In this document: piece by piece, positions 1,456 through 18,622 of the stretch
Numbering within the stretch: the first letter of the stretch is position 1
Layout: the number at the start of each line of letters is the position of its first letter
IMG/VR virus record: IMGVR_UViG_3300017700_000350
Span: 1 to 31,187 of that record
DNA length: 31,187 nt
Reading direction: 5' to 3' (one strand)
Origin: a virus
Taxonomy: Duplodnaviria; Caudoviricetes
Program-made: the position numbers and the translations under genes
The notes under the pieces: generated by a model
What the model was told of the DNA's origin: nothing
The model's database searches: none
The model's input: the letters and a program-made list of their open reading frames with translations, nothing else

Positions 1456-1562
1456 CAGATCGTGAAGCCATAGAGCTAATGGCGTTCTTCTTTGCTGTGG
1501 CTGCTGCGTGTCAGGTGTGGTTGTGGCTGAACCCTAGAAGCGCCACCACGGACGACGAGTAA
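1452..1562 (+). CDS. small single-TM protein (36 aa; not in ORF track)
   Basis: ATGA-coupled; MTDREAIELMAFFFAVAAACQVWLWLNPRSATTDDE*; converges on and overlaps the o-spanin 3' end. Confidence 0.5.
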   Translation: MTDREAIELMAFFFAVAAACQVWLWLNPRSATTDDE

Positions 1563-1836
1563 GCCTCGCATTCTCAACCCCTACCGCGTCGCAAATCTCA
1601 ATCACGGTGTTAGCCCGGTTGTTCGCCTTGTCCGTATCGCCGTGGCGAGCGTCTGCAACCACGACCCACGGACCGATAGCGTTCTCTTCGGGAGGGGGCG
1701 TTACCGCAACGTCAGCGCGAAGGGACGGGCCGATCAGCTTAGAGCAATCCAGCGCACTTTGGATGGTTGTCCCGCACCCGGCGGCAGTAAGCAATCCAGC
1801 CCCTACGGCCAGCCTCGCCAGCATCTTGCTCTGCAT
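1534..1836 (-). CDS. outer-membrane spanin (Rz1-like lipoprotein)
   Basis: MQSKMLARLAVGAGLLTAAG|C signal peptide with lipobox; GGAG RBS upstream; overlaps the 3' end of the i-spanin; last gene of the lysis cassette. Confidence 0.8.
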   Translation of the reverse strand: MQSKMLARLAVGAGLLTAAGCGTTIQSALDCSKLIGPSLRADVAVTPPPEENAIGPWVVVADARHGDTDKANNRANTVIEICDAVGVENARLTRRPWWRF

Positions 1837-2092
1837 TGTCCGCTCCGTCGATAAAGTCCGCGTTGGACTTGGTTTGTGCATCCGTAGCCGCGTCCCGCTC
1901 GTAACGACCCTCAGTGGCCCGTACAGCGGCAGAACCGGCGTTTGCTTGTGCCGCAGCCTGCCGAGCCTTCGCATGGGCTGTAGCGGCTTCCCTGCGGCTT
2001 TGGCACATGGTCAGGATCGCGCCAGCGAACAGCAGGACGACGATCAGGACGCTTAGAGCGACCAAACGACGGATTTCAGCCGGAATGTTCAT
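1739..2092 (-). CDS. inner-membrane spanin (Rz-like)
   Basis: N-terminal TM helix, Ala-rich helical periplasmic region, C-terminal Cys pair; overlaps the lipoprotein gene. Confidence 0.8.
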   Translation of the reverse strand: MNIPAEIRRLVALSVLIVVLLFAGAILTMCQSRREAATAHAKARQAAAQANAGSAAVRATEGRYERDAATDAQTKSNADFIDGADNAEQDAGEAGRRGWIAYCRRVRDNHPKCAGLL

Positions 2093-2094
2093 GG

Positions 2095-2123
2095 TTGAGA
2101 GACTAGCACATATAGGCTAGAAG
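2095..2123 (+). promoter_or_regulatory. putative sigma70 promoter for the tRNA-like RNA
   Basis: TTGAGA-17 nt-TAGAAG (GCTAGAAG resembles the Caulobacter -10 GCTANAWC); CTAGC-N8-GCTAG inverted repeat at 2103-2120; expected start near the RNA 5' stem. Confidence 0.5.
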
Positions 2124-2127
2124 GGTA

Positions 2128-2218
2128 GTGCGAGCGGCGTGGAAAGCAGACACGCAGAAGCCTACGAAGCTTCGCCTTCGGGCGCTGAGACAGTCGGAGT
2201 AGCGACCGGCCTCGCACT
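2128..2218 (+). ncRNA. tRNA-like cloverleaf RNA with Arg(ACG) anticodon loop and non-canonical D/T loops
   Basis: 7-bp acceptor-like stem GTGCGAG/CTCGCAC; hairpin GCGTG-GAAAGCAGA-CACGC; arm GAAGC-CTACGAA-GCTTC; variable arm GCC-TTCG-GGC; arm GTCGG-AGTAGCGA-CCGGC; no TTC and no encoded CCA. Confidence 0.7.
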
Positions 2219-2258
2219 AAGCGCCACCGCGACTGCGGGAAACGCCTACAAGCCGGAC

Positions 2259-2295
2259 AGGCCCTTCAGCTTCGGTTGGAGGGCCTTCTCGTTTC
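2259..2295 (+). terminator. probable intrinsic terminator downstream of the tRNA-like RNA
   Basis: AGGCCCTTCAGC-TTCG-GTTGGAGGGCCT 12-bp stem followed by pyrimidine-rich TCTCGTTTC; no U-tract on the minus strand. Confidence 0.6.
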
Positions 2296-2298
2296 ATG

Positions 2299-2327
2299 TT
2301 GCGCTAGATGCAATATCTAGCTACAAA
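2299..2327 (+). promoter_or_regulatory. putative promoter with palindromic spacer for a leaderless HNH mRNA
   Basis: TTGCGC-17 nt-TACAAA, with ATG 7 nt downstream and no SD; GCTAGAT-N5-ATCTAGC inverted repeat at 2303-2321. Confidence 0.55.
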
Positions 2328-2333
2328 CAGAGC

Positions 2334-2870
2334 ATGAAAGAGATTTGGAAAACTATTCCATCCGCGACGGACTACGAGTGTTCGTCCGTGGGTAATGTCA
2401 GGCGCGCAAACCCTGATTCGTGCGGCAGGAGGCCTCGCCAGCTAAAGTTAGTGGTGAAGTCGAACGGACGGTTGCAGGTTTCGCTTTGCGTGGACAAGCG
2501 CGTTCTGTCCCGTGAGGTCTCGCACCTTGTAGCCGAGACATTTATAGGGCCGCGACCACAAGGCTTGTTTGTCTGCCACAAGAACGGGAAGGCCCGAGAA
2601 AACACGCCCGAAAACCTGTATTATGGAACGCCTAAACAGAACTCCGAAGACGCCATTAGGCACGGCGTTATAGCGAGAGGAGCGGCTAACGGGAACTCTC
2701 GTCTAACCGAGGATCAAGCGGCTTTTATCCTTACGTTCTGCGGTACAGCGACCGAGGCGGCTGCGATTTGCGGCGTTTCTGTCTCTACTGCTTGCCGGGT
2801 CCGTAAGCGGGAAACGTGGAGCCACATTAAGAGCCGTACAAAGCCGCTTCCGCAGCACGACGGCGGATAA
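2334..2870 (+). CDS. NUMOD4-HNH free-standing homing endonuclease
   Basis: MKEIWKTIP..YECSSVGNVR (NUMOD4); HLVAETFIGPRP...VCHKNG...N..ENL.YGT.KQN (HNH_3 motif); C-terminal HTH-like tail; antisense to the lysis genes. Confidence 0.9.
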   Translation: MKEIWKTIPSATDYECSSVGNVRRANPDSCGRRPRQLKLVVKSNGRLQVSLCVDKRVLSREVSHLVAETFIGPRPQGLFVCHKNGKARENTPENLYYGTPKQNSEDAIRHGVIARGAANGNSRLTEDQAAFILTFCGTATEAAAICGVSVSTACRVRKRETWSHIKSRTKPLPQHDGG

Positions 2871-16494: not shown

Positions 16495-17073
16495 CTATGT
16501 CCTCCGATACACAGTGTCATTTCCTATACGGGCCACGCTCTTGTAGCCGGGCAAGGTCGCTTTTGGACCCAAGCCCTTTTCTTCAAGCACGATAATAGGC
16601 GAAAACTTCTCAATTGTCGCTAGTGCGCCTTTGATTGCGTCCGCTTCCGCGCCTTCAATGTCCAGCCAGATCAGATCGCATTGATCTAGGTTCCAGTCAT
16701 CTATGGCCCATACCGGAACCGATCCGCCCGGCAGCGTCTTGTGTGAACCGCAGTTGTCCGTGTCGATGCGAAGGACGCCACAAGTCCCGACCTCAGAACC
16801 AAGAGCGGCATAGTAGGTGGTAACGTTTTCCGCCGTGACGTTGGCTACCAAGCAATCAAGGTTGTCCGTATCAGGCTCAAACGTGATGACCCGATCAAAC
16901 ACCTTGGCCAGCGCAAGGGGATAAACACCCACATTTCCGCCAGCTTGAACGCAGACGCGCTTTTCAGCCACCATCGGCAAGACGACAGGCATAGCCGCCG
17001 CGCACTCGCTAACCACCGCGTTGCGGCAGCGCACGTCAAAATCAGGCCACCAAAGGCCATCTATCTGTTTCAT
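16495..17073 (-). CDS. FkbM-family SAM-dependent methyltransferase
   Basis: VQAGGNVGVY, VITFEP, AALG, IDDWNL..CDLIWLDIEGAE..AIKGA..TI....PIIVLE; start MKQIDG by ATGA coupling. Confidence 0.9.
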   Translation of the reverse strand: MKQIDGLWWPDFDVRCRNAVVSECAAAMPVVLPMVAEKRVCVQAGGNVGVYPLALAKVFDRVITFEPDTDNLDCLVANVTAENVTTYYAALGSEVGTCGVLRIDTDNCGSHKTLPGGSVPVWAIDDWNLDQCDLIWLDIEGAEADAIKGALATIEKFSPIIVLEEKGLGPKATLPGYKSVARIGNDTVYRRT

Positions 17074-17150
17074 CGGCGCGTGTTCACAAAGATGCCGACA
17101 ATGAGAAGCCACAGCAACCAGATAGCCAAAAGCGCGCCTGCCCAAATCAT
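17070..17150 (-). CDS. 26-aa single-TM peptide (not in ORF track)
   Basis: MIWAGALLAIWLLWLLIVGIFVNTRR*; fills the gap exactly, with ATGA overlaps at both ends. Confidence 0.65.
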   Translation of the reverse strand: MIWAGALLAIWLLWLLIVGIFVNTRR

Positions 17151-18577
17151 GCCAATAGCCTTCCCATCGCCGGAATCAGCCCAGTCCCATGCGCTATAAC
17201 TTTCACGCCTCGCTCACGAAGATATAGCGCTTGCTGCTGATATTCCATTGCCTGCCTAATCATCCAGCGGGCACACAGATACCGCTTGTCGGCTAACACG
17301 ACTTCCATTGTCGGTTCACCGTCATTGAGGCTTTGCGAATAGGCGTGATGCTTGCCTTCAGCATACGAACTGTCGAAGCCGTACAGATGGATTTTCTTGT
17401 ACCCCGACAGCCATGCCAGATTGATTGCGCGAAGCCCCACAGTCCCGCCACCGGGGACTAGAACGCAAGGCCGCTGGTTAGGCCCTTCGTCAAACCACGG
17501 CTTGATAATCTCCATGAGTTCGTCACCCGAACCCATCGCGTTATGCCACAGAACAACATCATGCCCTGAAAGCGCGTCAAACACGCACGGATGAACCTGC
17601 GAGGCTAGAAAATAGCGCACACTTTTTGGCGCGTTTTCCACCATTGGCAGGTTTTCTTCCCGCGCATCCAACATGACGTGTGCGTCTGGCGTCACGCCCC
17701 GTTCCATGAGGAACCGCAGTGCGTTGTTTACGGTGATGACCTTTAGACCCCGGCGCTTGTGGTCTTTGATTGCCTTTACGCTGCCCGCAAGCGACGGACC
17801 ACCGCCAACGATGACACAGCCCTTCTCTTGCTCGCCAAAGCCTGAGAACCACGGCACGTCACGCAGAACGTTGGCCCGCACGTTCGCATAGGCAAAGTCA
17901 TGCGTTACGTTCATGCCCTTCAGTTCTGGCATGGCCGTAAACCCGCCAACCTTCCAGACACCCGGAACCCAACCGTCAGTGATAGCTTCAGGCTTAGGCT
18001 CGCCGTGGCATATGACAGCTTTAGCCGTCTCAGGAGGCCATGCAACGGCATTGCGATACGAGACGAACCATTCAGGCGGGAACGTCTCCCATGCGCTGAC
18101 TTGACTAATCCACTCTTGATCGCCGCCGTTGATCTGTCCGGCAGGGAGAAGGCCCTGAAGACTCTCCGTAGGACGGTCGATTACGTCTGATGTAAACCGG
18201 CCAAAAATGTCTCGGTGTTCGCCATGACGCCAGCGCATGACGCTGCTGTTATAGGTCGGCCAATGCCAGTCCTGAATGATGCCGTGCGGCAAACCCTCAA
18301 GACGGCCCGTAACGCATACGTCGAGGTCCATATAGAGAACCTCCGCGCCAAGAGGCCACGGCATATACGGCGCAAACAAGCCGACTTTAGCCCACCAGCC
18401 CGGCAACCATGATTCGTGCGGAATGGCCGTAATGCCTTCCGGCAGGCTGTCCGGGTCGTCCGTTAGGCACCAATGGCGCTGTTCCTCGGCCAGATGGCGG
18501 GCGATGCCGTCATGAAGGCGGGTGACGTACTCAATCGGGTATTTGGTGCCAACGCGGACACTGACGACGTTAATCAC
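17147..18577 (-). CDS. two-domain glycosyltransferase: GT-A (GT8-like) fused to Maf/DUF115-like domain
   Basis: N-half: GTKYP.EYV, GWWAK..LF, YMDLDV (DxD), NSSVM, GGDQEWI, HGEPKP. C-half: IVGGGPSL, TVNNA, PDAHVMLD, GGTVGLRAINLA..SGYKKIHLYGFDSS. GTG start after GGAGG. Confidence 0.8.
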   Translation of the reverse strand: MINVVSVRVGTKYPIEYVTRLHDGIARHLAEEQRHWCLTDDPDSLPEGITAIPHESWLPGWWAKVGLFAPYMPWPLGAEVLYMDLDVCVTGRLEGLPHGIIQDWHWPTYNSSVMRWRHGEHRDIFGRFTSDVIDRPTESLQGLLPAGQINGGDQEWISQVSAWETFPPEWFVSYRNAVAWPPETAKAVICHGEPKPEAITDGWVPGVWKVGGFTAMPELKGMNVTHDFAYANVRANVLRDVPWFSGFGEQEKGCVIVGGGPSLAGSVKAIKDHKRRGLKVITVNNALRFLMERGVTPDAHVMLDAREENLPMVENAPKSVRYFLASQVHPCVFDALSGHDVVLWHNAMGSGDELMEIIKPWFDEGPNQRPCVLVPGGGTVGLRAINLAWLSGYKKIHLYGFDSSYAEGKHHAYSQSLNDGEPTMEVVLADKRYLCARWMIRQAMEYQQQALYLRERGVKVIAHGTGLIPAMGRLLA

Positions 18578-18591
18578 GCATCCTCCAATGC

Positions 18592-18622
18592 AAAAACGGC
18601 CCCCCACAAACGCGAGAGGCCG
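18592..18622 (-). terminator. intrinsic terminator after the capsid/decoration genes
   Basis: CGGCCTCTCGC-GTTT-GTGGGGGGCCG-TTTTT on the minus strand; preceded by a second hairpin, CCTAGCCTC-CACT-GGGGTTAGG. Confidence 0.75.

Follow-up and report, generated by a model that had tools for sequence, protein, structure and literature searches.

The 31,187-base virus record analysed here (the window) carries its terminase, portal, capsid and tail genes on the minus strand. Among named phages, its capsid is nearest to those of Bradyrhizobium phage ppBjS10J-1 (58.6%) and Myxococcus phages Mx9 and Mx8 (~50%). On the opposite strand, in the midst of the lysis genes, lies a short element that can be drawn as a tRNA cloverleaf, with an anticodon-like loop of the tRNA-Arg(ACG) type. 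The original prediction regarded this loop as the point of the element. The question raised by the locus is whether the RNA is an arginine-tRNA mimic or an RNA of another kind.

The RNA and an HNH endonuclease gene together occupy 734 bases (2093-2826) between the endolysin and i-spanin-like genes (Table 1). The spanin names are putative, since the PHROG search was blank for these genes and Pfam gave nothing above cut-off. In the two closest endolysin relatives (L370, 80%; L371, 66%), the endolysin and i-spanin-like genes are adjacent, with neither the RNA nor the HNH gene between them. Among 50 records with a similar capsid or endolysin (19 of them at least 90% complete), one contained the element (G115, where the copy is locus L077). 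This only close relative of the window phage with the element has it at a different site and with a different interior. The 50 records gave a second candidate pattern match (G116), judged on its matched letters, with two mismatches. Missing from close relatives and found in one of 50 similar records, the element is accessory. The HNH gene was rejected as the carrier of the RNA: none of 14 loci with HNH relatives contained the RNA, which makes the gene a neighbour and not a fixed partner. The HNH gene looks leaderless, as the −35/−10 spacing makes the A of its ATG the predicted +1. Upstream, the reading frame stays open through the RNA as far as a GTG at 2139. The last 44 bases of the gene overlap the endolysin gene, and its product has a weak HTH match at the C-terminus. 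Elsewhere in the window (16495-18607), methyltransferase-like and glycosyltransferase-like genes lie amid the virion genes.

Table 1. Features of the element and its surroundings in the window, and loci of the conserved interior class.
Feature	Position	Strand	Basis or remark
Overlapping i-spanin-like (1739-2092) and o-spanin-like (lipobox, ends 1534) genes, downstream of endolysin	1534..2092	-	Translations; synteny with L370, L371
Promoter-like site TTGAGA-17-TAGAAG	2095..2123	+	Predicted, from sequence
Closing (acceptor-like) stem, 5' strand	2126..2134	+	Covariation; 7 bp (2128-2134 with 2211-2217), 9 bp with the two extra pairs 2126-2127/2218-2219
CG linker (2135-2136) and D-like hairpin (2137-2155)	2135..2155	+	5 bp, 9-nt loop GAAAGCAGA
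Variable interior (cargo), 37 nt	2156..2192	+	Unique to window copy
Anticodon-like arm GAAGC-CUACGAA-GCUUC, 5 bp/7 nt	2157-2173	+	Loop 2162-2168
UUCG hairpin, within interior	2174-2183	+	
T-like hairpin, 5 bp, 8-nt loop, stacked on closing stem	2193..2210	+	Family loop NNUAGCGN; window loop AGUAGCGA
Closing stem, 3' strand	2211..2219	+	7-bp part 2211-2217; U at discriminator position 2218
Terminator-like UUCG-capped 12-bp hairpin (2259-2286), weak U tail	2259..2296	+	Predicted, z −2.9
Second promoter-like site TTGCGC-17-TACAAA and NUMOD4-HNH-HTH endonuclease gene (2334-2870)	2299..2870	+	Predicted +1 at ATG 2334
Endolysin (phage lysozyme)	2827..3396	-	
Members of the 11-member interior class	L001:1192-1398, L019, L033, L058, L060, L066, L101, L108, L119, L123, L157		

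All parts of the predicted cloverleaf and the terminator-like hairpin were recovered in place on the plus strand. Nine unpaired bases ahead of the T-like arm (2184-2192) were absent from the earlier description. No CCA is encoded after the closing stem, and a small bulged hairpin (2221-2247) lies between the RNA and the terminator-like site. The promoter-like element held up in part: both boxes are present with a 17-base spacing, but a strict promoter scan of the window gave no site there, since the −10 box lacks its last T. Canonical spacing sets the +1 near 2130, whereas the mode among the homologues described below is the first stem base, here 2128. With its −10 box two bases nearer than in the family mode, the start of the window RNA is uncertain. 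Both promoter-like sites of the window contain a CTAGC...GCTAG-type inverted repeat between −35 and −10 (2103-2120 and 2303-2321); these repeats are possibly operators.

The predicted fold of the window RNA was modestly better than that of shuffled sequences (z −1.9; 9 of 200 shuffles equally good). In the minimum-energy structure, an alternative pairing displaces the T-like arm, whose pairs have a probability of 7-12%, and the fold shared by the homologues lies 1.5 kcal/mol higher. The pairs of the anticodon-like arm have a probability of 88-93%. With the fold of the window copy alone unremarkable and the T-like arm outside the minimum-energy structure, it is the homologues and not the folding energy that establish the tRNA-shaped structure. 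As had been anticipated for tRNA finders, ARAGORN and Rfam passed over the element in the window: there was no match at gathering score, and four chance matches had E values of 1.7-9.5. A blastn search of 2126-2165 against E. coli genomes gave no match.

Homologues were recovered from both ends of the element. A blastn search of the gap against 50,697 phage records matched mainly 2134-2157, in Pseudomonas and Ochrobactrum phages. Scanning IMG/VR for the exact 19-base D-like hairpin yielded at least 121 loci (an estimated ~390 stretches). Downstream of 110 of the 120 distinct matches there was a 5-bp hairpin with a UAGCG-type loop, although this part was outside the search pattern, and right after it came the complement of the bases preceding the CG linker. 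A scan with the T-like side yielded at least 122 loci (~720 estimated), and in loci found via the T-like arm alone the same D loop, GAAAGCAGA, recurred with compensated stems. For either loop, only the scan that started from the other one gives an unbiased measure of conservation. Further copies were found by scanning GTDB, in contigs titled mostly Alphaproteobacteria but also Planctomycetota, Acidobacteriota and others; small contigs of metagenome-assembled genomes among them are possibly misbinned phage. A single detector applied to 369 loci gave 209 matches, representing 172 unique elements from phage, prophage and genome contigs (D scan 106/121, T scan 63/122, GTDB 34/120, named phages 5/5, and the window). 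It gave no match in 637,475 shuffled bases and none among 860 sequences whose downstream DNA was shuffled. Cultured phages carrying the element include Persinger, PotUPM1, Orimi01, D14H and POI1126.

The frame of this family consists of a covarying 7-bp closing stem, the CG linker, the D-like hairpin with loop GAAAGCAGA and the T-like hairpin with loop NNUAGCGN. The linker is present in 161 and the D-like loop in 157 of the 172 copies, both counts being partly set by the search pattern. In the T-like loop, G5 and C6 are invariant among 145 representatives, and the last T-stem pair is G-C in 144 of them. Covariation among homologues, proposed beforehand as a check, was borne out: in the 40 shortest representatives, double-sided changes occurred in 15 of 19 pairs, with 171 such cells against 47.9 in shuffles (0/500 shuffles as high) and 19-36 when the alignment was slid. 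In the closing stem, 8 of 9 pairs had double-sided changes among these 40 homologues. Beyond 7 bp, Watson-Crick pairing amounts to 75% at pair 8 and 56% at pair 9, and the stem is often 8-9 bp or longer. Percent-paired figures are inflated in general, since the detector demanded the stems. A CCA at the 74-76 position occurs in 4 of the 145 representatives.

Rfam searches of 20 homologue loci returned only neighbouring tRNAs and one Proteo-phage-1 RNA, and nothing on the element. Neither a description of the family nor four of its motif strings were found in the literature; fragments may sit in the alignments of PMC10690425 (8,495 viral candidates) or PMC5737381. The family is real, widespread, absent from Rfam and apparently uncatalogued, and its homologues support the view that the window encodes a stand-alone, non-translating, tRNA-shaped RNA. 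At one locus (L026:1198-1593), the element shares a leader devoid of genes with the Proteo-phage-1 RNA and, just upstream, a lone T-psi-C-like hairpin, which suggests a cluster of small RNAs.

Upstream of the frame, TAnnnT motifs clustered exactly 12 bases ahead of the 7-bp stem's first base, in 16 of 144 copies, with no more than 5 at any other offset. Sigma-70-type −35/−10 pairs lay just upstream of 18 of 142 copies, compared with 0 of 142 at a control offset seventy bases further up (P 4e-6); they are also present at the frames nearest to that of the window (L551, L553, L547). The +1 of these promoters falls most often on the first base of the closing stem. RNase P cuts pre-tRNA at the position matching this +1. 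Closing stems of at most 7 bp were found in 7 of 12 promoter-led copies but in 15 of the other 95 (P 0.003), as expected if a leader to pair with exists only in excised copies. The commonest pair just outside the 7 bp is U-A (48/145). At 5 of 60 loci scanned (L006, L028, L034, L051, L059), the element lies inside or beside same-strand tRNA arrays. The geometry and the 5'-end statistics are compatible with RNase P maturation, and we infer from the sequences that two routes, a promoter or RNase P, may lead to one and the same 5' end.

Downstream of 107 copies, 27 had a ribosome-binding site with a gene, 13 a terminator-like site (one copy had both) and 68 neither. The 27 same-strand genes with a ribosome-binding site within 70 nt compare with 5 in the antisense control. 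Within the 150 nt downstream, 14 of 103 homologues had a terminator-like site, whereas a control offset gave 4 of 103. No fixed protein neighbour emerged among the 82 scanned of 138 crudely called adjacent ORFs, which gave integrase, helicases, SSB, methylases, terminases, exonucleases, endolysin and others.

The family was compared with known tRNA-like RNAs. With tRNA-Arg(ACG) and class II tRNAs (RF00005) it shares a stacked 7+5 bp arm, a two-base linker and the G-C last T-stem pair. An acceptor stem of 7 bp that stacks on a T stem of 5 bp is thus present, though often longer in unprocessed sequence, while the likeness of the anticodon loop and variable-arm-like hairpin to those of these tRNAs is confined to the window copy. 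The family differs from tRNA (RF00005) in its 5-bp D stem, the absence of GG, the 8-nt T loop without UUC and the rarely encoded CCA. Neither a 7-nt UUCRANN T loop nor a D-loop GG was found, NNUAGCGN and GAAAGCAGA being present instead, and there was no conserved 5-bp/7-nt anticodon arm (tRNA-type arm in 1/172). ARAGORN and Rfam found no tmRNA, i.e. no tRNA-like domain with a tag reading frame.

YrlA Y RNAs also combine a tRNA-like domain of D, T and acceptor parts with another module in place of the anticodon arm, and some occur in phages (PMC4201824). They are described there as having an acceptor stem closed by a loop, the invariant bases of tRNA, a GNCGAAN0-1G motif near the 5' end and a Ro60 gene within 4 kb. 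In the present family, by contrast, the stem is open and the loops do not resemble those of tRNA, and the order is stem, D, interior, T, stem instead of the permuted T, acceptor, D of YrlA. No Ro60 (TROVE) gene was found within 4 kb on the same strand, and 45 of 49 carrier records had no Ro60 match. In the other four (G016, G025, G026, G044), TROVE lay at least 9 kb away by contig coordinates, compared with 0 of 50 controls. A link to Ro60 was rejected as not significant (P 0.056), two of the four carriers being related. A close variant of the YrlA motif was found in 17 of 145 interiors against 10.9 ± 3.0 in shuffles, and is not a shared feature.

The T4 species 1 and 2 RNAs (rnaC and rnaD; NC_000866.4; L582:309-447 and 454-572) resemble the family in their size of 120-140 nt and their place in a tRNA cluster; in rnaC, moreover, a long structured interior is followed by a T arm at the 3' end, and GUAGCG occurs twice. 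The T loop of rnaC is the canonical UUCGAAU, the loop GAAAGCAGA is in neither RNA, and GUAGCG does not form a hairpin loop in the predicted fold of rnaC; the frame and loops are not shared. GUAGCG is also the core of the family's T-like loop. Its complement, CGCUAC, is contained in the 5' hairpin loop of rnaD; a pairing of rnaC with rnaD is possible from these letters, but it was noticed post hoc and may be due to chance. Reverse transcriptases of the retron/UG27 type were no regular companions of the element (PF00078 in 2 of 49 carrier records); UG27 arrays share the idea of a constant frame with a variable middle and are described as coming with a reverse transcriptase (10.64898/2026.09.22.753630).

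The interiors of the 172 copies range from 37 to 270 nt (median 93.5) and fall into 145 unrelated classes, the 37 nt of the window being the shortest. The frames closest to that of the window carry interiors unrelated to it; L551 is identical to the window over 28 bases from the first stem base onwards and continues with an unrelated 63-nt interior. Among 14 pairs with related flanks, 7 have unrelated interiors. Both flanks are related only in L054/L068; with one related flank, as in the six other pairs, exchange of the interior is indistinguishable from movement of the whole element. Upstream, contigs from runs X1 and X14 are 99% identical to L026; they then carry a longer interior, with 141 other letters in place of 72, and rejoin L026 in the T-like arm and closing stem. 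In RNA-labelled runs, the L026 relative occurs as assembled contigs, which carry no information on ends, strand or level and hence were not counted as transcription.

One interior class (11 members, 117-156 nt; Table 1) is conserved. It has a hairpin plus a pseudoknot in which the loop pairs downstream, with pairs compensated across phages, as well as a fixed ACCUGA junction, a conserved 3' hairpin and a multi-helix fold. A search of L001, one of its members, against Rfam gave no match; the class is possibly an aptamer or ribozyme. Genuine T-psi-C arms were found inside 5 of 145 interiors. Canonical tRNA T arms without an acceptor stem of their own were seen in the interiors of L064, L091, L092, L114, L120 and L395, in L114 together with a D arm. 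GNRA-capped hairpins numbered 50 in sense, 14 in antisense and 29.3 in shuffled interiors, a bias towards the sense strand as that of the RNA. Overall, interior folding barely beats shuffles (median z −0.39; 27% below −1), and no k-mer was enriched across interiors beyond chance. CUGAGA was rejected as a recurring payload motif (7/145 against 3.8 shuffled, not significant), and the complement of the T-like loop was not enriched (1/145).

A conserved frame with an exchangeable middle is more interesting than the anticodon story. An engineered precedent exists in the tRNA scaffold, in which acceptor, D and T arms protect an RNA that replaces the anticodon arm (PMC3753655). Its arms surround foreign RNA in the same manner, with similar insert sizes; it is artificial and has canonical tRNA loops, whereas the present family is natural, has non-canonical loops and does not encode CCA. 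The family likely works in the manner of this engineered scaffold. We hypothesize that the frame is a natural tRNA scaffold for an exchangeable structured payload, rather than an arginine-tRNA decoy, and give this reading, built on sequence comparison, an even chance. The observations that count for it are the covarying frame, the two nearly invariant loops unlike those of tRNA, interiors unrelated even between close relatives, one interior class under selection, the accessory nature of the element and its many gene contexts.

Such a scaffold would give its payload defined ends and nuclease resistance. The two loops would dock, perhaps through a GC/GC kiss, into an L shape with the 7+5 bp arm of tRNA. 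No compensatory change supporting the kiss was found, and recognition of the frame as an elbow is conjectural, since the loops lack the GG and UUCRA of tRNA. The mature RNA would begin with the first nucleotide of the 7-bp stem; a promoter would set this end in some copies, and RNase P would generate it in those within tRNA arrays or operons. Interiors would be swapped by recombination in the conserved ends. The payloads, probably aimed at host RNA-binding proteins, would titrate or distract a host factor, e.g. a tRNA-targeting defence nuclease or modifying enzyme. In the window, a unit of promoter, RNA and terminator would have been inserted antisense into the lysis cassette like a moron, the payload of this copy being, as it happens, a stem-loop of the Arg(ACG) type together with a UUCG hairpin. 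Further observations speak against the scaffold: the closing stems are often longer than a strict 7 bp, the weak folding and lack of a shared k-mer in the interiors are what drifting filler would show, and the quarter or so of copies just before a ribosome-binding site and gene (27/107) also fit a role in cis. A more far-reaching form of the idea is a shared RNA display platform with a non-tRNA elbow and a recombined library of payloads (anticodon-arm mimics, T and D arms, pseudoknot aptamers), each neutralising a different host defence or RNA-binding protein, with the window copy as the decoy for TadA or an anticodon nuclease; this version we put forward tentatively, as possible but rather doubtful.

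The same interiors can be read the other way round, with the frame itself as the active part: a look-alike of acceptor arm and elbow that would occupy a single conserved host factor (an RNase, a toxin acting on tRNA 3' ends, or a sensor that detects uncharged or damaged tRNA), the interior being tolerated filler. That about 17 loop bases hardly vary among contigs of Pseudomonadota, Planctomycetota, Acidobacteriota and others is consistent with this, as are the weak folding z-scores and the lack of shared k-mers. The minimum of 37 nt and median of 93.5 nt among the 172 interiors, conservation with covariation in the 11-copy class, and loops unlike the loop sequences of host tRNAs argue against a frame decoy, which we consider unlikely.

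A further reading takes the element as a mark acting in cis for processing or stabilisation, around which RNase P and a 3' nuclease would cut to punctuate long phage transcripts. The excess of downstream genes over the antisense control and the several copies in tRNA arrays point in this direction. The remaining 80 of the 107 copies have no such gene, however, and a conserved pseudoknot interior is not needed for a cut mark. Behind the copies in the window, L002 and L281 there is a terminator or a convergent gene, leaving no message to punctuate, and those in the window and L281 have a promoter-like site of their own. We judge a cis mark to be quite unlikely.

For the anticodon-like loop, the original prediction was correct in the particular: CUACGAA is identical to the loops of four E. 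coli tRNA-Arg(ACG) genes in the region fetched for comparison. As the point of the element it fails, since CUACGAA occurs in 1 of 172 interiors, that of the window. The loop is kept neither in size nor in sequence among the homologues, an outcome that the prediction had itself named as speaking against it and that holds here at the level of the family. A 5-bp/7-nt arm at the anticodon position was found in 5 of 172 copies, with a tRNA-type loop only in the window. Scans for a YU-NNN-RA loop at this position matched 7 viral (IMG/VR) and 28 JGI metagenome stretches, among which only L569, the window's own record, had all 5/5 stem pairs. L558 and L559 have 4/5 pairs yet fold as a tetraloop hairpin, and L560 has CUACGAA with 1/5 pairs and no T-like arm. 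A scan for the stem of the window's own arm gave one chance match (L369), which is not an element. From these sequence comparisons, the Arg(ACG) loop cannot be the function of the family.

What can be asked is whether an anticodon mimic decoying TadA, colicin D or anticodon nucleases is the payload of the window copy alone. Here the exact E. coli loop stands in the tRNA position, in the shortest copy and on a well-paired arm. TadA is reported to edit YUACGAA stem-loops also in mRNAs of gammaproteobacteria (PMC12255301); the loop of the window copy matches this motif and could be edited whatever the function of the RNA, which makes such editing plausible as far as sequence goes. Three of 145 copies have a 7-nt first hairpin; the probability that a real anticodon loop would turn up among these by chance is roughly 1%, an estimate biased by the window having been picked for that very match. 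The loop is a single case with no second in the IMG/VR and JGI metagenome scans, the nearest frames differ, and the related phage G115 has another interior at another site. Even for this payload, the decoy is therefore improbable.

Short phage RNAs that are matured by host RNase P include the C4 RNAs of P1 and P7, the CI RNA of P4 and the phi80-induced M3 RNA; they are described as having no T-loop equivalent (PMC5499578), whereas the present family has a T-like arm. No local antisense signal was found for the family. C4 and CI act by antisense pairing. That the element is such a regulator, with an interior pairing to a nearby phage or host mRNA, is very improbable despite the RNase P-matured precedents and the many copies in early or immunity regions, as complementarity to the flanks within 1.5 kb is at background (at 75 loci the longest match averages 8.65, and 8.63 with foreign interiors), the best match of the window able to pair with minus-strand mRNAs is 9 nt, and no C4-type Rfam match was found at 20 loci. 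By these comparisons, which are all drawn from sequence, the family appears to lie outside the tRNA, tmRNA, YrlA, C4/CI and reverse transcriptase-template classes.

The two nearly invariant loops of the family may point to an undescribed loop-loop fold, and a frame that tolerates inserts of 37-270 nt could serve as an RNA expression scaffold. Its presence in cultured phages makes the family testable now. Attack on tRNA is common among anti-phage systems, P2 OLD being an example, and the countermeasure described in that connection is a replacement tRNA (PMC12445682). A family of several hundred tRNA-shaped, non-translating phage RNAs, divided by their variable middle and missed by ARAGORN and Rfam, would offer new ground in which to seek RNA-based counter-defence.
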